NCBI GenBank assembly: GCA_019695095.1
Contig: JAIBAQ010000002.1
Span: 40,995-104,994, forward strand
Length of the DNA stretch: 64,000 nt
Source of the DNA: Candidatus Hydrogenedentota bacterium
Lineage (GTDB): Bacteria; Hydrogenedentota; Hydrogenedentia; Hydrogenedentales; SLHB01
Reading direction: 5' to 3'
Under the pieces are notes generated by a model. It saw only the letters and a program-made list of their open reading frames with translations. It did no database searches and was not told the origin of the DNA. This document shows, one piece after another, positions 608 through 46,305 of the stretch (the first letter of the stretch is position 1; each line of letters starts with the position of its first letter). Made by a program: the position numbers and the translations under genes.

Positions 608-1039
608 TCAGGATTTTGAGTTCGCCTCCTTTTGAAGAGAGGCAAAAAGGTGCGTTGCTTCAGCAGACGAAAACTTGACGGTAACATGTCCTGTCGCTCG
701 CGGCAGGAAGTCCTCCGCATCAAATTCCATGCGGACCCTTTTCCCATCCACTTCAATTCGGAGACCTTTGTCGAGCGGGTTGTTCAGAGGGATCTCTACA
801 ATCGTCAAGAGCGAGAACGCGCTAAGTATGATTAACCGCTTGCGAGTGAAGACCACAGAGCCCGCACAGAGCTTCTTTTTCCAGTGGATCCAAATCCCCG
901 GCGCTCTGAATCGCTGAAACTTGATCGAGTACCAGATCCCCTCGTCGAGGTACACGACACCCTCAGACTCATAGTCCTTTCGCCTTTGCCGCGAGAGTCC
1001 TCCCAAGCCAAACAGTCTGTAAAACACCGTCTGTGCCAT
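608..1039 (-). CDS. Hypothetical protein (143 aa, start trimmed to internal Met to exclude repeat-derived codons)
   Basis: ORF 608..1219 begins inside repeat copy A, so its first 60 codons are repeat sequence. The internal Met (MAQTVFYRLF...) gives a GC3-rich reading frame. No recognisable family. Confidence 0.3.
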   Translation of the reverse strand: MAQTVFYRLFGLGGLSRQRRKDYESEGVVYLDEGIWYSIKFQRFRAPGIWIHWKKKLCAGSVVFTRKRLIILSAFSLLTIVEIPLNNPLDKGLRIEVDGKRVRMEFDAEDFLPRATGHVTVKFSSAEATHLFASLQKEANSKS

Positions 1040-1068
1040 GACTTCCTCCCTGTCGAAGCAGTCGTCTT

Positions 1069-1264
1069 CTAACCAGGATTTCTCACGAACACACATGAAC
1101 CTCTCCCGTAACCAGGATGCTTGCCGGACTTGCGGCGCAAACCTAAGCGGCTCTCCGAAAACAGAGTGTGTTCGCGAGAAATCCTCATGGCATGACCTCC
1201 AAGTCCTGCACGCGAGCAATTTGCACCGGCGCTCAATCGCGCCGGTGCAAATTGCGGATTAAGG
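1069..1264 (-). repeat. Copy A of ~195-bp palindromic MITE-like repeat (ends partly degenerate)
   Basis: About 90% identical to copies at 2295, 20034 and 45879. Contains the terminal perfect hairpin gcaatttgcaccggcgc-tcaatc-gcgccggtgcaaattgc at 1218-1257 and the internal long inverted repeat ggatttctcacgaacacac ... gtgtgttcgcgagaaatcc. Sits between a hypothetical gene and the SPFH gene. Confidence 0.85.
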
Positions 1265-1277
1265 GTAGACGGGATTA

Positions 1278-2279
1278 CTACTCCGGTTTTGGATTGCTGG
1301 TGTTCTCCAGGAGGTTCTTGATTCCACCCAACGAACCGAGAATGGCCGTGGCTTCGTAGGGCAGATACACGACTTTGTTGTCTTTGCCGGAAACCATCTC
1401 GCGCAAGGTCTCGATATATCGCATCGCAACGAGGTAGCCAGCCGGATCGCCTCCGCTGTCCTTGATGGCTGCCGTCACTTTTTGTAGCGCTTCGGCCTCG
1501 GCCTGAGCCACTTTGATGCGCGCTTCGGCTGCACCCTGCGCCTCCAGTACCAGCGCCTGCTGAGCGCCTTCTGCTTTCGTAATTTCCGCTTGCCTGATAC
1601 CCTCGGCTTCCAGGATCTTAGACTGCTTCGCTCCTTCGGCATCAAGGATGGCTGCGCGCCGATCGCGCTCCGCGCGCATCTGCTTTTCCATGGCCCCTTT
1701 CACGTCCGCCGGAGGGATGATGTCTTGAAGTTCAACGCGATTGATCTTTACGCCCCACTTGTCAGTGGCATCGTCGAGGATAGCCCGGAGCTTGCTGTTG
1801 ATGGTGTCCCGTGAGCTTAACGTCTCATCCAGATCCATCTCGCCGATGACGTTACGCAGCGTAGTCTGCGTCAGTTTTTCGATGGCGTTGGGAAGATTGG
1901 CCAGTTCATACACCGCTTTCACCGGGTCTGTAATCTGGAAATACAGCATCGCGTTGATTTCGATGACCACGTTATCCTTGGTGATGACGTTCTGCTTCGG
2001 GAAGTCGTAGAGGGTTTCCCTGAGATCGAGCCGCGCAATGGTCTCGCACCGGACTATGGGCTTCCCGTCGATGTCGATTCGCACGTATTTCCATTCGATG
2101 GAACGGGGCTTGTCGAAGAACGGCCAGATGATGTTCACGCCGGATTTCAAGGTCCGGTTGTACCGCCCCAGGCGTTCGATGACCATGGTTTCGGCTTGCT
2201 GAATGATCTTGAGGCCCTTTGCGGCGAACAGAATCACTGCGAATGCAACGACGATGAGAATTACGATCAACCCTTCCAT
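1278..2279 (-). CDS. SPFH/band-7 (stomatin/prohibitin-like) membrane protein
   Basis: N-terminal TM helix, then the SPFH core (IVERLGRY..., KDNV...I.A.LYFQI.DP), then a long coiled-coil A/E/Q-rich tail. Lies downstream of an NfeD gene, the classic pairing. Confidence 0.9.
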   Translation of the reverse strand: MEGLIVILIVVAFAVILFAAKGLKIIQQAETMVIERLGRYNRTLKSGVNIIWPFFDKPRSIEWKYVRIDIDGKPIVRCETIARLDLRETLYDFPKQNVITKDNVVIEINAMLYFQITDPVKAVYELANLPNAIEKLTQTTLRNVIGEMDLDETLSSRDTINSKLRAILDDATDKWGVKINRVELQDIIPPADVKGAMEKQMRAERDRRAAILDAEGAKQSKILEAEGIRQAEITKAEGAQQALVLEAQGAAEARIKVAQAEAEALQKVTAAIKDSGGDPAGYLVAMRYIETLREMVSGKDNKVVYLPYEATAILGSLGGIKNLLENTSNPKPE

Positions 2280-2294
2280 CTGCCTGATCCCTTT

Positions 2295-2488
2295 CTAGTC
2301 CGCAATTTGCACCGGCGCGATTGAGCGCCGGTGCAAATTGCGACCTTGCAAGACATTGAGGTTATGCCATGAGGATTTCTCGCGAGCACACTCTGTTCTC
2401 GGAGATTTGCTATGTTTTTCGCCGCAAGTCTCGCAAACACACTGTTTACGAGAGGGGTTCAAGTGTGTTCGTGAGAAATCCGGACTAA
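2295..2488 (+). repeat. Copy B of ~195-bp palindromic MITE-like repeat (inverted relative to A and C)
   Basis: CTAGTCCG terminal inverted repeat at the left end (2295) and its complement CGGACTAa at 2481-2488. Perfect 17-bp stem / 6-nt loop hairpin at 2302-2341. Inserted in the nfeD-SPFH intergenic spacer. The minus-strand TAG stop of nfeD (2485-2487) lies inside the element terminus. Confidence 0.9.
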
Positions 2489-2928
2489 CGGACTCGATCC
2501 ACTTCCACGGTGCAACCGGTAATCGCGCGCACGCAGACCCGCGCGCCCAGAGGTACCTCATCGGTGAACGGACTGACGGCCTTCCAATCTTCGCCGCCAA
2601 TCTTTACCCGACCCGTGTGCGCTGAGGACGAAATGGCTTCGACAACCACGCCCTCACGCCCCACCAACCCATCCACATTTGTCTGAGACGCATCGCCTTC
2701 TCTGTGCAGTAGCCGCACGCATATAGGGCGGACCGCGAAGAGCAGCACCGCCGAGGCCACGACAAAGCCCAGGAGTTGTCCCGCGAGCCCGACTCCTGAA
2801 ACAGAAAGGACCGCCGGAACGGCACACGCCACGCCGAACAGAGACACAAGGAATCCGGTGGTAAATATCTCGGTGATGAGCAACACCAGTCCCAAGATAA
2901 TCCAAAGATGCCACATGGCCAAGTGCAT
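2485..2928 (-). CDS. NfeD-family membrane protein (partner of SPFH protein)
   Basis: Two to three N-terminal TM helices and a C-terminal OB-fold-like segment (GRVKIGGEDWKA...), the NfeD architecture. Immediately upstream of and co-oriented with the SPFH gene. Confidence 0.8.
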   Translation of the reverse strand: MHLAMWHLWIILGLVLLITEIFTTGFLVSLFGVACAVPAVLSVSGVGLAGQLLGFVVASAVLLFAVRPICVRLLHREGDASQTNVDGLVGREGVVVEAISSSAHTGRVKIGGEDWKAVSPFTDEVPLGARVCVRAITGCTVEVDRVR

Positions 2929-3091
2929 GCTATGCCTCCCGGGAGTCTTCCCCCGCTAACGCTCTTCGTGAGCGACACCCCACTCCACGCAATATTAGCA
3001 CAGGGAATCCCGTTAGCCTCTACTATAAAAGATGCTCATGGTCTTCACTTCGTTTATACGGCCGGTTTGCCTTTGCCCGTGTCTCAAGCCG

Positions 3092-3097
3092 TATAAT
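3092..3097 (+). promoter_or_regulatory. Candidate -10 box (TATAAT) upstream of aspC
   Basis: Perfect TATAAT about 135 nt upstream of the aspC start codon. The candidate -35 (TTGCCT, 3067-3072) is at a sub-optimal 19-nt spacing. Confidence 0.3.
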
Positions 3098-3230
3098 CTC
3101 CCGATTCGCACGCAGCGGTGGCGCACTGCTCCTGCTTTCGAGCAGGTAAAGCGTGTGCATATCCCGTATAGTTCACAAGGCGTATTTCGCCTCGGGCAGG
3201 CAGTCAACCAAGGGAGCTTCGTAGAGGATT

Positions 3231-4436
3231 ATGCTGTTCAACACACTGGAAATGGCCCCCCCCGATCCCATTCTTGGACTTGCGGAAGCGTTCAAGAAGG
3301 ACACCAATCCCGGAAAGATCAACTTGGGTATCGGCGTGTACAAAGACGCGAAGGGGAACACGCCCGTATTCCAGTCCGTGAAACGCGCTGAAATGCGGAT
3401 TCTCACGGAAGAATCCACGAAGAATTACGTGAACCCGAACAGCGGCACCGCTGAGTACTGTGCGGCAGTGCAGAGTCTTCTTTTTGGGGCGGATAATCCG
3501 ATTATTAAGCAGAAGCGTGCTGCCAGCGCCCACACGCCGGGTGGGACAGGCGGTTTGCGGCTGGCGGCAGACGTCATCGCGGTAATGGCTCCGAAAGCTA
3601 CGGTCTGGCTCAGTGATCCCACGTGGCCCAACCACCCCAGTATCTTCCAGGCAGCGGGGCTGGCCGTGAAGAACTATCCCTACTACGACGCCAAGAACAA
3701 GTCCCTCGATTTTGATGCCATGCTTGCGGCGTTGAAGACCGTGCCCGAGGGCGACTTCGTCCTGCTTCACGGTTGTTGCCACAATCCCACGGGTCTCGAT
3801 CCCGATGCTGCCCAGTGGAAGGCAATCACGGACGTGGCGAAGGCCCAGAAGTGGATTCCGCTCATTGATTTCGCCTATCAGGGTCTGGCCGACGGCATTG
3901 ATGAGGACTGCTTAGGGGTGCGTGCAATGTGCGCAGCGCTTCCGGAAGCCCTCATCTGCTCGTCCTTTTCCAAGAACTTTGGACTTTACAACGAGCGAGT
4001 AGGTGCAATGACGCTGGTGGCAGACACTGCCGAAGCCGCCGAGAAGGCGCTTAGCCACGTGAAGCGCTGCATCCGCACCAACTACTCAAATCCGCCCGCC
4101 CACGGCTCAAGTATCGTCACAACGATTCTCAACGATCCCGATCTGCGCGCCGAATGGGAGGGAGAGGTAAAGGCCATGCGCGAACGTATTCATGGCATGC
4201 GCGTGCTTTTTGTCGATACCCTGAAGGCCAAAGGCGTCAAAGAGGACTTCTCATTCCTGATTCGGCAGAAGGGCATGTTCTCATTCTCCGGGCTTACCAA
4301 GGCGCACGTCGACAAGCTCAAGGAGAAATATGGCATTTACATCGTCGGGTCGGGCCGCATCAATGTCGCGGGAATGACTCCTGACAACATGGATCAACTC
4401 TGCACGGCCATCGCGGATGTGTTGGCAAACGCGTAA
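3231..4436 (+). CDS. aspC: Aspartate/aromatic amino acid aminotransferase (class I, AspC/TyrB type)
   Basis: Full-length similarity to AspC: GIGVYKDAKGNTPVFQSV, the PLP-lysine region SFSKNFGLYNERVG, and NYSNPPAHG. AGAGGA ribosome-binding site 6 nt upstream of the ATG. Confidence 0.9.
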   Translation: MLFNTLEMAPPDPILGLAEAFKKDTNPGKINLGIGVYKDAKGNTPVFQSVKRAEMRILTEESTKNYVNPNSGTAEYCAAVQSLLFGADNPIIKQKRAASAHTPGGTGGLRLAADVIAVMAPKATVWLSDPTWPNHPSIFQAAGLAVKNYPYYDAKNKSLDFDAMLAALKTVPEGDFVLLHGCCHNPTGLDPDAAQWKAITDVAKAQKWIPLIDFAYQGLADGIDEDCLGVRAMCAALPEALICSSFSKNFGLYNERVGAMTLVADTAEAAEKALSHVKRCIRTNYSNPPAHGSSIVTTILNDPDLRAEWEGEVKAMRERIHGMRVLFVDTLKAKGVKEDFSFLIRQKGMFSFSGLTKAHVDKLKEKYGIYIVGSGRINVAGMTPDNMDQLCTAIADVLANA

Positions 4437-14003: not shown

Positions 14004-15326
14004 CTACGCTTTGGGGGCGCCTTCCTTGGGCGCGGCGCCTTCGCCTTCTGTTGGGGCTTCAACGAGATTCTTGCCTGACAGAAGCGTATCCAGTTCTTTG
14101 CGCAGAGTCTGCTCAAGGTTGGGTATCAGTCCAACGTGCACCGACTGCACGCTGCCGTCTTTGCCGATGATAACCGTCTGCGGGATGCCGCTGACTCCAA
14201 ACAAATCGCCGACCGAGCCATCCTTGTCGAGAGCCACGGGACAGGCAAGCTCGGACTCGGTGAGGAAAGTCTTAATCGTGTCGGCATCTTCTCGCTGGTT
14301 CATCGCATAGAAGACTACTCCCTTGTCCTTGTATTCGTCGGTCACCTTGATAATCGTGGGCAGAGCTTTTTTGCACGGCCCGCACCACGTGGCCCAGAAG
14401 TCGAGGACGACCACCTTCTTGTCTTTGTGCGGCGCCAACTCGGCCTTTCCTCCGTCGATGAGATCCAAGGAGAACGCGGGGGCGGGTTTCCCGAGCAGCG
14501 GGCTTTCTTCTTGTTCTTCACGGCCCAGCATTGCCATGAGCGAATCGGCTTTTGCCGCGCCTTCGGGAGGTGTGAACGAGAACTTTTCGGCGGGGATGGG
14601 TTCGTTGACAGTCCAATTGGCGTATCGCACGTTGACACTCATCTTCATGTCTTTAACGGGCATGCGATCGCCGGCGGTTGCGAGGGCTTTCGCCATATCG
14701 GGCACGATCTTGATTAGAAGGGGTTTATCGCCCGTTTGCACATACATATCGATATCAATCTCTTCCTGGATCAACTTGATGTGGCTGCATTTGACCCCCT
14801 CGACGTCCTCTACCCCAACCAGAGTTGCCTCGTTGACCCCTTCCAGTATTGCGGCCGAGGGATCGTCCGACACGAGAGAGGCGGAGAGGATGGAGAACTG
14901 CCCCGAAAACATCGCGGCCTCCCCTGCGACTGCGTCGAATGCCGTTTCTGGCGCGTCTTCTTGGGTGTATTTCTTGAACATTGGCAGATACGTGTAGAGC
15001 GTCTTGCCGTCCGACACGATCGTGGCACCCATCATACCTTCTTTCAGGATGCGCGAGACCTTATTCGGGCGCTCGATGGCGACGGCGTAGTCGGAGTTCA
15101 TGGTTTGCTTCATGCCTTGAGCTTCCATCACCATTTCTGTCGTCTCATCCACGGTGAATGACTTCAGGCCTTTGTAGTATTCGCCCAAGGCATCGATTAC
15201 TTTCTTGGCTTCCGGGGCAATCTTCGAGCCTTGTTCCGCATTCTGAGCCAATGAGGCCGGACTGACAAACGCAAGGAGCGCGGCGATCACGAGCGGAACT
15301 GCGAAGCGAGCCTTCTGAATGGACAT
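14004..15326 (-). CDS. Secreted thiol:disulfide oxidoreductase, TlpA/ResA-like thioredoxin domain with N-terminal LolA-like/unknown domain
   Basis: Signal peptide. C-terminal thioredoxin fold with a WATWCGPCK active site and the VxxxGxPxTxxIxxDG motif. Confidence 0.75.
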   Translation of the reverse strand: MSIQKARFAVPLVIAALLAFVSPASLAQNAEQGSKIAPEAKKVIDALGEYYKGLKSFTVDETTEMVMEAQGMKQTMNSDYAVAIERPNKVSRILKEGMMGATIVSDGKTLYTYLPMFKKYTQEDAPETAFDAVAGEAAMFSGQFSILSASLVSDDPSAAILEGVNEATLVGVEDVEGVKCSHIKLIQEEIDIDMYVQTGDKPLLIKIVPDMAKALATAGDRMPVKDMKMSVNVRYANWTVNEPIPAEKFSFTPPEGAAKADSLMAMLGREEQEESPLLGKPAPAFSLDLIDGGKAELAPHKDKKVVVLDFWATWCGPCKKALPTIIKVTDEYKDKGVVFYAMNQREDADTIKTFLTESELACPVALDKDGSVGDLFGVSGIPQTVIIGKDGSVQSVHVGLIPNLEQTLRKELDTLLSGKNLVEAPTEGEGAAPKEGAPKA

Positions 15327-15381: not shown

Positions 15382-15427
15382 TAGTCCGCAATTCACACTG
15401 GCGCAACTGAGCACCGGCGTAATTTGC
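15382..15427. repeat. Solo, degenerate terminal-hairpin fragment of the MITE-like repeat
   Basis: tagtccgcaattcacactggcgcaactgagcaccggcgtaatttgc retains the TAGTCCGCAAT terminus and imperfect hairpin arms; the rest of the element is missing. Intergenic between the TlpA-like gene and pdaD. Confidence 0.6.
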
Positions 15428-15549
15428 TCTCGGGATAAGGCCCTGCAAATCCGGCATTTGCGATTGGTGAAGCCAGGCCGGAAAAAGAATAAGGCCTCAA
15501 CCTTTGCCCGATAGGGCACAGAATTGAGGCCTGGAATTCAGTCGTTGTG

Positions 15550-16152
15550 CTACACAACGAAAACGACAGCCGTGAGGACTGTTGTCCAAAGGCCATCCTT
15601 GTTCCCTTCAGCGGATTGGCAAATATTGCGCGTTTTGAAGATGTGACCGCTCGCTTTATAGATCTGTTTGCGTTCGTCCCAGGCAAGGTCCGGGTCAAAC
15701 TCGATACCGAGGGTAGTAGCCAGCATGGTCGCGGCGAGGTCTTCGGCGTAGTCGCCCGCGATGCTGCTCTTCTGGCCGTACGCGTGGTGCTCGCTGATGT
15801 ATCCGTATTGGTCTTCCTTTTGCGGTACGGCAAGTCCAACCGCGCTGGCAACCAACCGATTAGGTTCGCAAGTGTCGCAGCGGGACATCACGCAGAACAC
15901 GATCTGGCCGGGGGAAAGGTACTTGAGACCTTCTTTTTTCGTGACGATCTTGCAGTTTGGCGGAAAGATACTGGAGACGTATACAAGGTTGAATTTTTCG
16001 ATACCCGCATCGCGCAGGGCACTTTCAAACGAAGCCAGCTTCTCTTTGTGGATGCCCACGCCGCGGACGAAGAACGCACGTTTTGGGATCAAATCCTTGG
16101 CCATGCATTGACCGGAATCGGCCGAAAGTTGACGTGCCAGGGATTTGTCCAT
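15550..16152 (-). CDS. pdaD: Pyruvoyl-dependent arginine decarboxylase
   Basis: Conserved [10 protein letters not shown]...[11 protein letters not shown] region holding the serine precursor of the pyruvoyl group. Start moved to the Met preceded by a GGGAGGA ribosome-binding site. Confidence 0.75.
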
Positions 16153-16287
16153 CTCAATTCCTCCCGCATAGTGCATAGAGCTGTGATCAGAAATGACGAA
16201 AAACGTGAAATACGCCCAGAGCGCAATTGCGTAGTATAATCGGCGCTGGCGCTTGATGCAAATAGGGGCTCATCGCGGAGGCTTTTC

Positions 16288-20033: not shown

Positions 20034-20226
20034 CTAGTCCGGATTTCTCACGAACACACTTGAGCCCCTATCGTAACCAGTGTGTTTGCGAGCTTGCGGC
20101 GAAAGACATAGCGTTTCTCCGAGAACAGAGTGTGTTCGCGAGAAATCCTCATGGTATAACCTCAAGGTCTTGCACGTTAGCAATTTGCGTCGGCGCTCAA
20201 TCGCGCCGGTGCAAATTGCGGACTAG
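20034..20226 (-). repeat. Copy C of ~195-bp palindromic MITE-like repeat
   Basis: CTAGTCCGG at the left end (20034) and CGGACTAG at the right end (20219-20226). Same internal inverted repeats; shares the GTC/GAC hairpin variant with copy D. Lies between the unknown secreted protein gene and the MtaA-like gene. Confidence 0.9.
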
Positions 20227-20248: not shown

Positions 20249-21475
20249 TCATCGTGTATGAATGGCGTCGAACATGGCAACGATATTGTCCGGAGGGACA
20301 TTGGCGAGTATGTTGTGTACCTGTTGGAATACGAACCCACCGTTCGGACGCAAGGCGCGGACTTGCTCAATTACGTGTTGACGCACTTCGTCCGGTGTCC
20401 CATTCGGCAGCACGCGTTGAGTGTCGCAGCCGCCGCCCCAAAAGGTGATGTCGTTGCCAAAATCGCGTTTGATTGTAACGGCGCTCATGCCTGCGCACGA
20501 GATTTGAACGGGATTGATGGCGTCAAGACCTGCATCGATGAGGTCGGGTAACAATTCGCGCACGCCGCCGCAGCAGTGCAGCATCACCTTCACGTCCGCA
20601 AGCTGCTTCGCGCGGCCCCACATGGCTTTGTGGCACGGCTTGAAGTACTCGCGATACATATCCGGCGAGATCTGCGGACCGCCCTGCGACCCCAGATCGT
20701 CTCCAAACAAAATGACGTCGATATACGGACCGACTGCACCCAGGAATCGCTCCAGATTTGCCAGATGAATCTCAAGTAATCGATCCAGAAAAGCGTGGAC
20801 TTTGTCCGGATCTTCCGCCAGCATCATGAGGAAACCATCGTTTCGCCAGAAGAACTGACCCATCTCCAGCGTGTTTCCGCCGAATAACCCAATGATCGCT
20901 TTGTCCGTCGATGCCCGGAGGCGCTTCGCTCCTTCAGCCAGCCGTTGCAGCCCATCCGGACCCGCCGTGAGAGGTCCCGGGGGTGACGCCACAGCGCACC
21001 ACATGCACTCGCTCATTGCGCCAGGAATATTGTCGATGTCTTCGTGCTCAAGGTAAGGATAGTGTGTCTGTTCAAAGTACAACGCGCCGTCGGGCATCTG
21101 GGCAATCACGCGTCCGCTCGTTGAGCGAATCACCCAACGGGCTCCGTCGCGCTCCGGCAAGGCCCACGCGGGCATCTGACACGGTGTGCCGTCCGGCAAT
21201 GTCCAGTCGGCCCAGTCCTTGTCATCCAGGGCAAATGCGCGGCCCAACTCAATGGTGTCAATGCCGAATCGGGTCAGCACGTCATCATCGACGATGGCGA
21301 GTTGCTGCACCGGGTCATAGACACGTATCGGCCGTTTCGGCAGACCAAGGTGATCGCGCAGTCGCGCATAGGCAATAGCCGCAATACCGCTTGAGCGGTG
21401 CCCAGAAAGATCGACAGCGACCCGATCCGGTTCGCGGTGATTCAACGATGCCAGTACTCGTTCGCGCGAATTCAT
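20249..21475 (-). CDS. URO-D superfamily protein of the MtaA/CmuA methylcobamide-methyltransferase type (annotated as uroporphyrinogen decarboxylase family)
   Basis: About 400 aa with the URO-D TIM-barrel fold and an N-terminal RERVLASLNHREPDRV. Zinc-ligand-like H-x-C motif VMLHCCGGV followed ~75 residues later by GGGC, as in MtaA. It is the last gene of the GH-like/symporter operon. Confidence 0.75.
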   Translation of the reverse strand: MNSRERVLASLNHREPDRVAVDLSGHRSSGIAAIAYARLRDHLGLPKRPIRVYDPVQQLAIVDDDVLTRFGIDTIELGRAFALDDKDWADWTLPDGTPCQMPAWALPERDGARWVIRSTSGRVIAQMPDGALYFEQTHYPYLEHEDIDNIPGAMSECMWCAVASPPGPLTAGPDGLQRLAEGAKRLRASTDKAIIGLFGGNTLEMGQFFWRNDGFLMMLAEDPDKVHAFLDRLLEIHLANLERFLGAVGPYIDVILFGDDLGSQGGPQISPDMYREYFKPCHKAMWGRAKQLADVKVMLHCCGGVRELLPDLIDAGLDAINPVQISCAGMSAVTIKRDFGNDITFWGGGCDTQRVLPNGTPDEVRQHVIEQVRALRPNGGFVFQQVHNILANVPPDNIVAMFDAIHTR

Positions 21476-43818: not shown

Positions 43819-45882
43819 ATGGGTCGATTCAGACCACCCTATCTGGGCGCCGCATATTATCCCGAGACGTGGCCCCGCGAGCAGTTGGACGAGGACATCA
43901 AGCTTATGCGCGATGCGGGCATGAATGTCATGCGCATTGCAGAGTTTGCGTGGAGCAGCATGGAGCCTGCAGAAGGGCGGCTGGAACTTGGCTGGCTTCG
44001 CCGTGTCGTGGACAAGCTGGCAGAGGCCGGAATCGCGACCATTATGTGCACCCCCTCGTGTACACCGCCCGCATGGCTTACCGAGAAGTACCCGGAGGTC
44101 CTCGTGGTAAGCCATGCGGGAGTCCGAGCGCGGCACGGCTCGCGCCGCCATGTTTGTCCCAATAGCCCGATCTATCGCGGCCACTGCGAACGCATCGTGA
44201 CCCGGCTCGCCGAAATGTTTGGTCAAGACGAAAACGTCATCGGCTGGCAAATCGACAACGAAGTGGACCTTTGGAAAGGCGAGGGGTGCTTCTGCGATCT
44301 GTGCGTACGACTGTTTCGTGAGAGGCTCCGCAAAAAGTTCGGGAGCATTGATGCCCTCAACGAATCCTGGGGAACGCATCTCTGGAGTATGACGTACCAA
44401 TCGTTCGAACAGATCCCGGCTCCCGAGCCCAGCATCCACGATCACCCGTCCTTGTCGACGGCCTGGACCTTGTTCCAAAGCGACAGTATGGTGGACTACG
44501 TCCTTCATCAGGCGTCAATCCTGCATGAGCACGTTTCGCAGCCAGTCGGCACCGATATGATGCCCATCTTGTCGGTGAGTTACGAGAAACTGCACCGGCA
44601 TCTCGACATTGTTCAATACAATCACTACGACTCCATGGAAACCCTATGGAAGCAGGTCTTCTGGATGGATTATGTCCGCCCCTTCAAGACGGCTCCGTTC
44701 TGGAACACCGAAACGGCCACCTGTTGGAATGGCGGTGTCACTGCCAACGGCTATAAGGATCCCGGGTTCTGCCGCGTCAATTCCTGGCTTCCTATTGCGC
44801 TGGGAGCGGAGGCCAACTTGTATTGGTTGTGGCGGGCTCACTGGAGCGGCCAGGAACTCATGCACGGCTCCGTCGTGTCGAGCCACGGCAGGCCGTTGCA
44901 TATCATGGGAGAGGTGAAGGAAGTCGCAAAGGGTTTTGAGGCGGCTGGAGACTTCCTTTCACAGACAGTCCCCGCTCCTACAGGACTCGCCGTGCACGTT
45001 TCGACCGTAGCGTGGGCTCAGTTCCGCCACCAACCCATGGCAAACGGCTTTGACTATCTTGATTGTCTCTTGAATCGAGTATGCAGGCCGTTGATGGACG
45101 TGCATCTGCGTGTGGACTTTATCGATCCGGCGGATTCTCTAACAGACTATAGGGTTGTGTATTCACCCTTCCTGCCTGCTTTGGATGAGTCTCGACTTCG
45201 AGAGCGTCTGTGGACTTGGATAGAAGCAGGCGGAACATGGGTGGTGGGCCCGCTGTCCGATACGCGCACTCTCGAAGCCACAAAACCTGCCGGCGCCCCG
45301 TTCGCCTCCCTGGAAGAGTGGGCTGACATCTACTGTGCGTACGAGGTTCCCGGCGACCCTCGCGATTTCGCCTTCCGTTGGAACGACGGAACGGCGTCAC
45401 ACGGCAGTTTGTGGTATTCGGGTTTTGAGACCGAAAAGGCAAAGGTGTTGGCGTCTTACCTCGACGGTCCGCTGAAGGGCATGGCCGCGATCACTGAGAC
45501 TCGAGTTGGCATTGGGCGCATTATCGTGCTCGGCACACTTCTGAACTCCCAGGATATGAGGGCCTTGATGCTTCGGGTGTGCGGCGAGGCTGAGATCGTT
45601 CCCGCGGCCGATGCATCCCCCAATGTCCTCGTCGTCCCGCGCGTAGGAGAGGGCGGGTCGGGAACAATTGTAATGGAGATTGAGAACCGGACTGGGTATC
45701 TGCAACTGCACCAGCCGTGCAAAGATATCCTGACTGCGCGGAATTACGATGGGCGTGTCGAAATAGAGCCCTATCAAGTCTTGGTGCTTCAGACAGAGCG
45801 CAGCATTGTAAGCGATGACGGCGCATTGGCCGGTCACGTCTCCGATAGGGGACCGCTCGGATCGTTTGAGGAGGCTCCCTAG
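43819..45882 (+). CDS. Beta-galactosidase, glycoside hydrolase family 42
   Basis: GH42 A-domain with the catalytic-acid context GWQIDNE and the Zn-binding Cys cluster CFCDLC, then trimerisation and beta-sandwich domains. Its TAG stop codon (45880-45882) lies within the CTAG terminus of repeat copy D. Confidence 0.9.
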   Translation: MGRFRPPYLGAAYYPETWPREQLDEDIKLMRDAGMNVMRIAEFAWSSMEPAEGRLELGWLRRVVDKLAEAGIATIMCTPSCTPPAWLTEKYPEVLVVSHAGVRARHGSRRHVCPNSPIYRGHCERIVTRLAEMFGQDENVIGWQIDNEVDLWKGEGCFCDLCVRLFRERLRKKFGSIDALNESWGTHLWSMTYQSFEQIPAPEPSIHDHPSLSTAWTLFQSDSMVDYVLHQASILHEHVSQPVGTDMMPILSVSYEKLHRHLDIVQYNHYDSMETLWKQVFWMDYVRPFKTAPFWNTETATCWNGGVTANGYKDPGFCRVNSWLPIALGAEANLYWLWRAHWSGQELMHGSVVSSHGRPLHIMGEVKEVAKGFEAAGDFLSQTVPAPTGLAVHVSTVAWAQFRHQPMANGFDYLDCLLNRVCRPLMDVHLRVDFIDPADSLTDYRVVYSPFLPALDESRLRERLWTWIEAGGTWVVGPLSDTRTLEATKPAGAPFASLEEWADIYCAYEVPGDPRDFAFRWNDGTASHGSLWYSGFETEKAKVLASYLDGPLKGMAAITETRVGIGRIIVLGTLLNSQDMRALMLRVCGEAEIVPAADASPNVLVVPRVGEGGSGTIVMEIENRTGYLQLHQPCKDILTARNYDGRVEIEPYQVLVLQTERSIVSDDGALAGHVSDRGPLGSFEEAP

Positions 45883-46072
45883 TCCGCAATTTGCACCGGC
45901 GCGATTGAGCGCCGACGCAAATTGCTCACGTGCAAGACGTTGAGGTTATGCCATGAGGATTTCTCGCGAACACACTCTGCTTTCGGAGAACCGCTTTGTT
46001 TTTCGCCGCAAGTCTCGAAAGCACAATGGTTACGAGATAGGTTCAAGTGTGTACGTGAGAAATCCGGGCTAG
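45879..46072 (+). repeat. Copy D of ~195-bp palindromic MITE-like repeat
   Basis: Flanked by CTAG at both ends (45879-45882 and 46069-46072). Terminal hairpin carries the C/D variant gcgccgacgc. Lies between the GH42 gene and the sugar ABC importer operon. Confidence 0.9.
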
Positions 46073-46305
46073 CTCCGTCGTCAGAGATAATAGAGATGCA
46101 AAGTCGTGTGTGCCCCCCGGATTGTGCGAGGATGATTCTGCATCCGGCTTCAGCGCTTGCAGGGCCGTTCGGAATCGCTCTTTTGATGGACAAGCAAGAA
46201 TGGGGCTCAGGGGCAGCCATATCGACTTCGTGTGAATGAGGCCCCAGCCGAACGTGTCGGTTCGTGGCCAGAAAAGTACGCGACTTCACGAGAGGGGTGC
46301 GGCAC

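Follow-up and report, generated by a model that had tools for sequence, protein, structure and literature searches.

The nfeD gene and the GH42 beta-galactosidase gene of this Hydrogenedentes contig both end in a TAG stop codon that adjoins a short hairpin-forming repeat. Most probably, with a likelihood of roughly four in five, this repeat is a non-autonomous, MITE-like transposon that targets TA within YTAR sites and that landed in TAG stops already present at both gene ends. To judge from orthologs without the element, neither NfeD nor GH42 was changed by a single residue. Stop codons and repeat overlap for a reason: the insertion target was the stop codon's own TA. A preliminary description of this DNA had placed both stops at the end of the repeat, and here the ORF ends and a four-copy alignment agree with it. 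It had also proposed that the insertion rewrote the last codons of both proteins, a proposal which the orthologs refute. The window denotes the whole stretch of 64,000 nucleotides that was analyzed.

Within the 64-kb window we found four full copies and one 53-nt relic of the repeat, i.e., a density of about one copy per 16 kb. The bodies of the full copies measure 187-188 bp, share 84-92% mutual identity, occur in both orientations and are intergenic in all four cases. A base-for-base alignment reveals that the homology between copies ends precisely at a flanking TA, on both sides of every full copy. The copies and their flanks are as follows.

Copy A: body 2298-2485, 188 bp, plus strand, between nfeD and the SPFH gene; nhmmer E-value 3.9e-68; body ends GTCCGCAATTTGC...GAGAAATCCGGAC.
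Left flanking TA of copy A: 2296-2297, within the CTAG at 2295-2298.
Right flanking TA of copy A: 2486-2487, forming the TA of the nfeD TAG stop.
Copy B: body 45882-46069, 188 bp, plus strand, directly 3' of the GH42 gene and sense to it; nhmmer E-value 1.5e-68.
Left flanking TA of copy B: 45880-45881, the TA of the GH42 TAG stop, within the CTAG at 45879-45882.
Right flanking TA of copy B: 46070-46071, within the CTAG at 46069-46072.
Copy C: body 1072-1259, 188 bp, minus strand; flanking TAs at 1070-1071 and 1260-1261.
Copy D: body 20037-20223, 187 bp, minus strand; flanking TAs at 20035-20036 and 20224-20225.
Upstream neighbor of copy D: 20249-21475, a URO-D-like gene with a TGA stop.
Copy E: 15382-15434, 53 nt, plus strand, a partial, diverged relic; nhmmer E-value 1.4e-7.

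Copy E retains only the left-end hairpin module with a TA before it, while the remainder is missing or unrecognizable. The relic is upstream of a DUF2092/thioredoxin-like gene (14004-15326), 55 nt from its start. For the four full copies, the distance from the first base of the stop of the upstream co-directional gene to the proximal TA is 0, 0, 17 and 24 nt (copies A, B, C and D; sites 2486, 45880, 1260 and 20224). In copy C, where the proximal TA (1260-1261) follows the first base of the SPFH stop with 16 nt between, the distal TA is found 30 nt upstream of the ATG of the next gene (1039); in copy D, the 24 nt are counted from the TGA of its neighbor to the TA at 20224-20225. Not a single full copy (0/4) lies in a divergent promoter region. 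Relative to the genes, one copy is antisense and three are sense, the antisense one being copy A, which runs against the would-be nfeD-SPFH operon transcript.

The nfeD-SPFH junction is composed of three native features.

nfeD: 2485-2928, minus strand, 147 aa, Pfam NfeD (PF01957), protein ending in ...VEVDRVR.
SPFH/Band 7 gene: 1278-2279, minus strand, 333 aa, PF01145 (E-value 6e-40), the downstream partner of nfeD.
Native spacer: 2280-2294, minus strand, 15 nt, AAAGGGATCAGGCAG, with a Shine-Dalgarno-like AAGGGA, abutting the SPFH ATG (2279-2277).

The 3' end of nfeD reads GTC CGT TAG, with the stop at 2487-2485. For comparison we used three relative loci, L001, L002 and L003, whose NfeD proteins share between 74 and 79% identity with that of the window (79, 77 and 74%). 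None of them carries the element, and their junctions can be set directly beside the window sequence from which the body and one TA were removed.

L001: GTC TAT TAA GAAAGGGAACTGGCG ATG, 15-nt spacer, no element.
L002: CGG ATT TAG ... ATG, 20-nt spacer, no element.
L003: ATT TAC TAA ... ATG, 17-nt spacer, no element.
Window without body and one TA: GTC CGT TAG AAAGGGATCAGGCAG ATG, 15-nt spacer, AAGGGA kept.

The NfeD proteins encoded without the element end in VEVDQVY (147 aa), VEVDRIY (147 aa) and VEVDRI (146 aa), and the protein of the window has 147 aa. In two of the three relatives the stop is located at codon 148, as in the window, and in the third it comes one codon earlier. Since element-free orthologs stop at this position and the C-termini are homologous, the position of the nfeD stop predates the insertion. 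The final residues VDRVR had been regarded as partly encoded by the element. Their codons (2502-2488) lie outside the homology shared by the four copies and align with VDQVY, VDRIY and VDRI of the relatives, so that this reading fell away.

With 205 nt (2484-2280), 190 of which come from the element, the spacer of the window is far longer than that of the relatives, which measures 15-20 nt in all three. The assumption that the two genes are normally tightly coupled is borne out by these spacers. The further statement that the element occupies the whole spacer holds for the 190 nt only; the 15 nt before the SPFH ATG (2294-2280) are native. The neighborhood of nfeD carries a different insertion in another lineage: in L002 (GCA_041859475.1), a RelB/ParE-YafQ toxin-antitoxin pair and two small ORFs (2249-2775) are placed between an aminotransferase gene and nfeD, and they are absent from the window and from L001. 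Different insertions have thus been taken up in different lineages, and the region evidently accepts them.

The second junction concerns a single gene.

GH42 beta-galactosidase gene: 43819-45882, plus strand, 687 aa, PF02449 and PF08532, protein ending in ...GSFEEAP.

Its 3' end reads GCT CCC TAG, with the stop at 45880-45882. The two closest orthologs (80-81% identity), encoded at the loci L014 and L015, both have 687 aa and lack the element. In L015, the gene ends with ACG ATC TAA and represents a clean empty site: about 18 nt past the stop, the homology with the post-element flank of the window resumes (ATGCAAGATCGTGTGTGCC versus ATGCAAAGTCGTGTGTGCC). In L014, the stop TGA and the start of the following gene share bases (ATGA). 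Thus, one codon position is occupied by three stops in three lineages, namely TAG in the window, TAA in L015 and TGA in L014. The gene overlapping the stop in L014 encodes a polysaccharide deacetylase (2323-3078), whereas in the window (45883-46305) and in L015 GH42 leads straight to an ABC permease. The spacer between GH42 and the permease, counted without the element, is about 233 nt long in the window versus 173 nt in L015.

What the insertion contributed to the two stops can be read from the bases on either side of the element. A CTAG is present at 45879-45882, at the end of GH42, and at 2295-2298, the far end of copy A, where the left TA belongs to a second TAG on the gene strand that represents the duplicated target. 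The preliminary description had located both stops inside a palindromic CTAG, which is correct for GH42; at the end of nfeD, the tetranucleotide 2485-2488 is CTAA, i.e., TTAG on the gene strand. Under a 2-bp duplication of TA, only the G of each TAG would derive from the element, and under a 4-bp duplication of YTAR none of its bases would. Beyond the far end of the element, the displaced base is in both cases a G (position 2295, read on the gene strand, and position 46072); both genes therefore ended in TAG even before the insertion.

These observations bear directly on the mechanism put forward in the preliminary description, i.e., an element terminus that supplies a new stop and C-termini of NfeD and GH42 that are partly element-encoded. 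The TAGs do abut the element, a 2-bp duplication would make their third base the element's first, and the last residue of NfeD is R (CGT) in the window versus Y in two orthologs. Against this stand the stop codon position shared with element-free orthologs (two of three for NfeD at 147 aa, two of two for GH42 at 687 aa), the location of the VDRVR codons (2488-2502) outside the homology and the displaced G at both sites. We consider a newly supplied stop very improbable. The refuting observation named in the preliminary description, element-free orthologs with an unchanged stop position, was made for both genes. The empty sites that had been called for exist at nfeD-SPFH (L001-L003) and at GH42 (L015), each with a single stop codon at the insertion position; a native TAG is found in L002 only, the others being TAA.

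In the orientation of the element, the four-base flanks are CTAG/CTAA for copy A, CTAG/CTAG for copy B, TTAA/TTAG for copy C and CTAG/CTAG for copy D. TA occurs at both ends of all four copies, as does YTA, and all eight flanks match YTAR. The YTAR is identical at both ends in two of the four copies, while copies A and C show a mismatch between ends at the fourth base. That the preferred sites are TA or CTAG-type sequences at gene ends, as supposed earlier, fits the flanks of all four copies and the orthologous empty sites. In copy C the first flank base co-varies between both ends (T...T), and this match slightly favors a duplication of more than 2 bp. With only four full copies, duplication lengths of 2, 3 or 4 bp all fit the flanks, and any target logo would be provisional.

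As the flank motif is of the same kind everywhere, a duplicated target and a similar motif on the element's own end look alike. This leaves some room for a mover that makes no duplication, such as an IS200/IS605-type derivative or a Y1-moved REP/REPIN-like unit, inserting 3' of YTAR and bringing its own CTAG at the far end. Hairpins that are subterminal, in place of strong terminal inverted repeats, would suit such a mover, and every empty site is equally compatible with it. We nevertheless rate it as improbable. Copy C carries TTA at both ends, which a duplication explains without an extra mutation. Moreover, the window encodes no Y1/RAYT transposase, the repeat has no GTAG-type REP head, and it is found in both orientations relative to genes. 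A REP/REPIN system with its RAYT was rejected in particular, as the head of the hairpin module is CTAGTCC and not GTAG, no Y1 protein is encoded in the window and the unit is 188 bp long with TA flanks, in place of a palindrome of 20-40 nt. Integron attC sites were rejected as well: both orientations occur, the window proteins include no integrase domain and the flanking genes are syntenic core genes.

Near the nfeD stop we observed a further resemblance. The flank at 2481-2494 repeats the terminal hexamer of the element on the gene strand (AGTCCG-TT-AGTCCG), and the last codons of two orthologs (GAC CGG ATT T; L002 3428-3441, L003 1238-1251) contain CCGGATTT, the same 8-mer as in the end of the element (GTCCGGATTTCTC). 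It may be a coincidence or a hint of insertion beside sequences resembling the element ends; the flanks of the other three copies show no such repeat of the hexamer.

The MITE-like reading draws its evidence of mobility from relatives in which the sites are empty. Besides sites A and B, site C is empty in L002 and L001, which makes three of the four dispersed full copies missing from relatives. When built from all four, a profile found no copy in 43.7 kb of the relatives' loci. The flanks of the window are collinear with the orthologous loci, and the flanking genes belong to the syntenic core of the relatives. The putative mobility is judged by comparing genomes with and without a copy, whose proteins share only about 80% identity.

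Copies outside this genome were not detected by 20-mers in GTDB species representatives, JGI metagenome contigs and viral contigs, by blastn in plasmids or by a peptide search. The element 20-mer TCCGCAATTTGCACCGGCGC gave five matches in unrelated phyla among the GTDB representatives, which we attribute to chance because they cover only 20-26 nt of one hairpin arm with no element around, and another five among the JGI contigs, likewise discarded as chance. A 20-mer of the second module had no match in viral contigs, and blastn of the element had none in plasmids. Neither the window proteins nor the plasmid search provided an autonomous parent element, and our literature search on repeats of Hydrogenedentes returned nothing. 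The repeat is a previously undescribed, lineage-specific MITE-like element that is otherwise ordinary.

NfeD and GH42 of the window show 100% identity to proteins encoded on a 108-kb contig of a Candidatus Hydrogenedentes MAG. The source of the sequence is thus a MAG contig, and repeats are a frequent cause of mis-joins; a collapsed or mis-joined repeat could in principle have created the junctions. In an independent Logan assembly (run SRR1027651), the same gene-element junctions flank the SPFH gene on either side and follow nfeD. Because these independent contigs carry them, and with flanks collinear to the orthologous loci, a mis-join in the MAG can be ruled out for practical purposes. The Logan contigs L016 (1081 bp) and L017 (8781 bp) end inside element copies, which is typical of a multi-copy repeat; the breaks fall within the hairpin (copies A and C) and, coming from nfeD, 26 nt inside copy A.

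The body of the element is arranged as GTCCGCAATTTGCACCGGCGC-GATTGA-GCGCCGGTGCAAATTGC, followed by a linker and a unit of about 110 bp. This unit is bounded by a nearly perfect 19-20-bp inverted repeat (GGATTTCTCGCGAACACAC ... GTGTGTTCGTGAGAAATCC), after which GGAC follows. The first module is a 17-bp hairpin that is perfect in copies A and C and that has two uncompensated mismatches common to copies B and D. The element ends are TCCGCAATTT and TCCGGATTTC. Compared by eye, the ends TAGTCCGCAATTTGCAC and TAGTCCGGATTTCTCAC agree in about 14 of 20 bases, with only TAGTCCG and ATTT clearly in common, so that the terminal inverted repeat is weak. Stronger inverted repeats lie within the body, the most pronounced being the perfect 17-bp hairpin and the pair of about 20 bp around the 110-bp unit. 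As RNA or single-stranded DNA, the element is predicted to form two hairpins, with its ends pairing to close the structure, at energies of -93 and -95 kcal/mol (z = -5.6 and -6.8 versus shuffled sequence).

A MITE is expected to be about 100-400 bp long and to encode no transposase, and a body of 187-188 bp without a transposase domain fits this description. A scan of 45 window proteins detected no transposase domain; four of them match no Pfam family. One frame of the element, in reverse orientation, is open from end to end in three of four copies (2295-2487, 45879-46072 and 1069-1264), stops at the terminal TAG and is frameshifted in copy D. An alignment of its peptide, ...DFSRTH...REKSSWH.L.VL...NL.RRSIAPVQIAD, was used to search a collection of 5.8 billion proteins for ORFs miscalled over further copies and gave no candidate. 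The open frame is probably due to chance, since no protein of the collection shares even short words with it.

The predicted structure also invites a functional reading, in which operon junctions retain the repeat for a regulatory function of its RNA or DNA (an mRNA-stabilizing or processing hairpin, or an attenuator that balances upstream against downstream gene products) and its position at the stop is selected. Its high predicted stability would suit such a role, and so would the short distances to the stops. Against non-coding TA or YTAR sites, this proximity has a P-value of 0.002-0.004, for a threshold chosen post hoc; with CTAG sites as the null, significance is lost (P 0.09-0.16). One passage of PMC2229807, citing Mazzone et al. 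2001 and De Gregorio et al. 2002, 2003, describes Correia repeats, i.e., Neisseria MITEs, as forming RNA secondary structures. The mixed orientation of the copies relative to genes, one antisense and three sense, speaks against a role in the transcript, and a scan of 900-3300 yielded neither a sigma-70-like promoter nor a U-tract terminator tied to the 17-bp hairpin. The stem mismatches of copies B and D are uncompensated, and covariation across the four copies is about zero (covariation term +0.19). Relatives lack the element at the same junctions. Altogether, selection for a regulatory module appears quite unlikely to us. A resident riboswitch or sRNA was rejected: the Rfam 15 covariance models, applied at the gathering score to both strands of the whole window, gave no match, and relatives are without the element at the same junctions. 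Neisseria repeats are reportedly co-transcribed with their neighbors and cleaved by RNase III. Elsewhere in the window, a classical terminator-like hairpin with a T-run (AGGCCTCAATTCTGTGCCCTATCGGGCAAAGGTTGAGGCCT TATTCTTTTT) is located at 15490-15545 on the minus strand, just downstream of a gene for a pyruvoyl-dependent arginine decarboxylase (15550-16176). This example shows that canonical intrinsic terminators, unlike the hairpins of the element, are in use in this genome.

Two insertions out of four in stop codons do not call for selection on the stop, once the availability of targets is taken into account. At 56% G+C, the window contains 1794 TA dinucleotides versus 3091 expected, and CTAG is depleted about seven-fold (35 observed versus 243 expected). 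According to rough gene calls, TAG is the commonest stop (22 of 48). TAG as the most used stop is unusual for bacteria. From the depletion of CTAG and the frequency of TAG stops it follows that tolerated targets cluster on or just after stops. For a chance test, we collapsed the elements to empty sites and computed the probability that at least two of four copies fall on a stop; its values are to be read with n = 4 copies and approximate gene calls.

All TA dinucleotides as null: P = 0.002.
TA outside coding sequence as null: P = 0.08.
YTAR outside coding sequence as null: P = 0.14.
CTAG outside coding sequence as null: P = 0.6.

With the target preference allowed for, two of four copies on stops are unremarkable (P about 0.1-0.6). 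No more than target preference and the elimination of insertions that disrupt genes is needed to account for the stop-codon pattern.

From these data, a course of events can be proposed for the MITE-like element. It would insert at a TA within YTAR or CTAG-type targets, whereby the target would be duplicated, at least the TA and possibly four bases. In nfeD and in GH42, the element would have struck the TA of an existing TAG stop. TAG would be regenerated at the same codon position because both element ends begin with G (5'-G...C-3') or because the whole YTAG was duplicated. The surviving insertions would be those that do not disrupt genes, and hence they would be enriched on or just after stops. 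Mobilization may have occurred in trans by a DDE transposase of the IS630/Tc1-mariner or IS5 type, with staggered cuts at TA. The copies, their flanks, the empty sites and the conserved stops are direct observations; the insertions are presumably neutral, and any effect of the element on expression is hypothetical.

Known systems provide partial precedents. According to a statement in PMC2170065, citing Tenzen and Ohtsubo 1991, IS630 inserts at the TA in 5'-CTAG-3' and duplicates the TA; RUP of Streptococcus pneumoniae has TA as its target and is tied to IS630-Spn1 (PMC2229807). Our element resembles both in the TA at each end and the CTAG-like targets, and in being small, intergenic and multi-copy. 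It differs by the absence of sequence similarity, no IS with matching ends having turned up, by its weak terminal inverted repeats and by a duplication that may exceed TA. In the IS5 group, target-site duplications are 4 bp long with the sequence 5'-YTAR-3' (PMC5009759). Here, the likeness lies in the flanks, which are all YTAR (CTAG, CTAA, TTAG, TTAA), and in the co-varying first base of copy C, whereas the putative duplicates disagree in their fourth base in two of four copies. The closest precedent for the location comes from Coxiella burnetii, in which QMITE1 and QMITE2 overlap gene 3' ends by 1-3 bp without significant change of protein size, e.g., 2 bp in ubiB, 3 bp in a glutamate transporter gene and 1 bp in kdgK (PMC5896051). 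Along with the Correia/nemis repeats, the QMITEs share with our element the TA ends, the hairpin formation and a length of about 100-400 bp, and the QMITEs share its location at gene 3' ends. They have neither host phylum nor sequence in common with it. No IHF site and no promoter-like motif turned up in the element, which is built of two hairpin modules in place of one stem formed from both ends.

At the nfeD-SPFH junction, growth from about 15 to 205 nt of highly structured sequence is the one real local consequence of the insertion. The SPFH gene retained its putative native ribosome-binding site. An operon transcript would contain both hairpins, and co-transcription of nfeD and the SPFH gene across the element is likely, as no canonical terminator is present. 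Altered processing, a change of RNA stability or lost translational coupling would be possible results at this junction.

A more far-reaching idea is that of a family that is 'stop-codon safe': with a G following the TA at both ends, landing in TAG or TAA would regenerate TAG in either orientation, and the hairpins might retune the ratio of NfeD to SPFH protein. We hold this to be unlikely. If it were true, stop-safe ends would let the element colonize the operon junctions of a compact genome, and its hairpins could stabilize polycistronic RNA, direct its processing or hamper translational coupling.

For annotation, the record is corrected in that both proteins are intact and their C-termini are not to be annotated as element-derived. 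The MITE-like reading, moreover, documents an undescribed repeat in the poorly studied phylum Hydrogenedentes, where it fragments short-read assemblies. Insertions are steered onto stop codons by a preference for TA/CTAG combined with the depletion of CTAG and the frequent use of TAG as a stop. Should the hairpins influence expression, the nfeD-SPFH junction would be a natural test of how tight the coupling of this gene pair must be.
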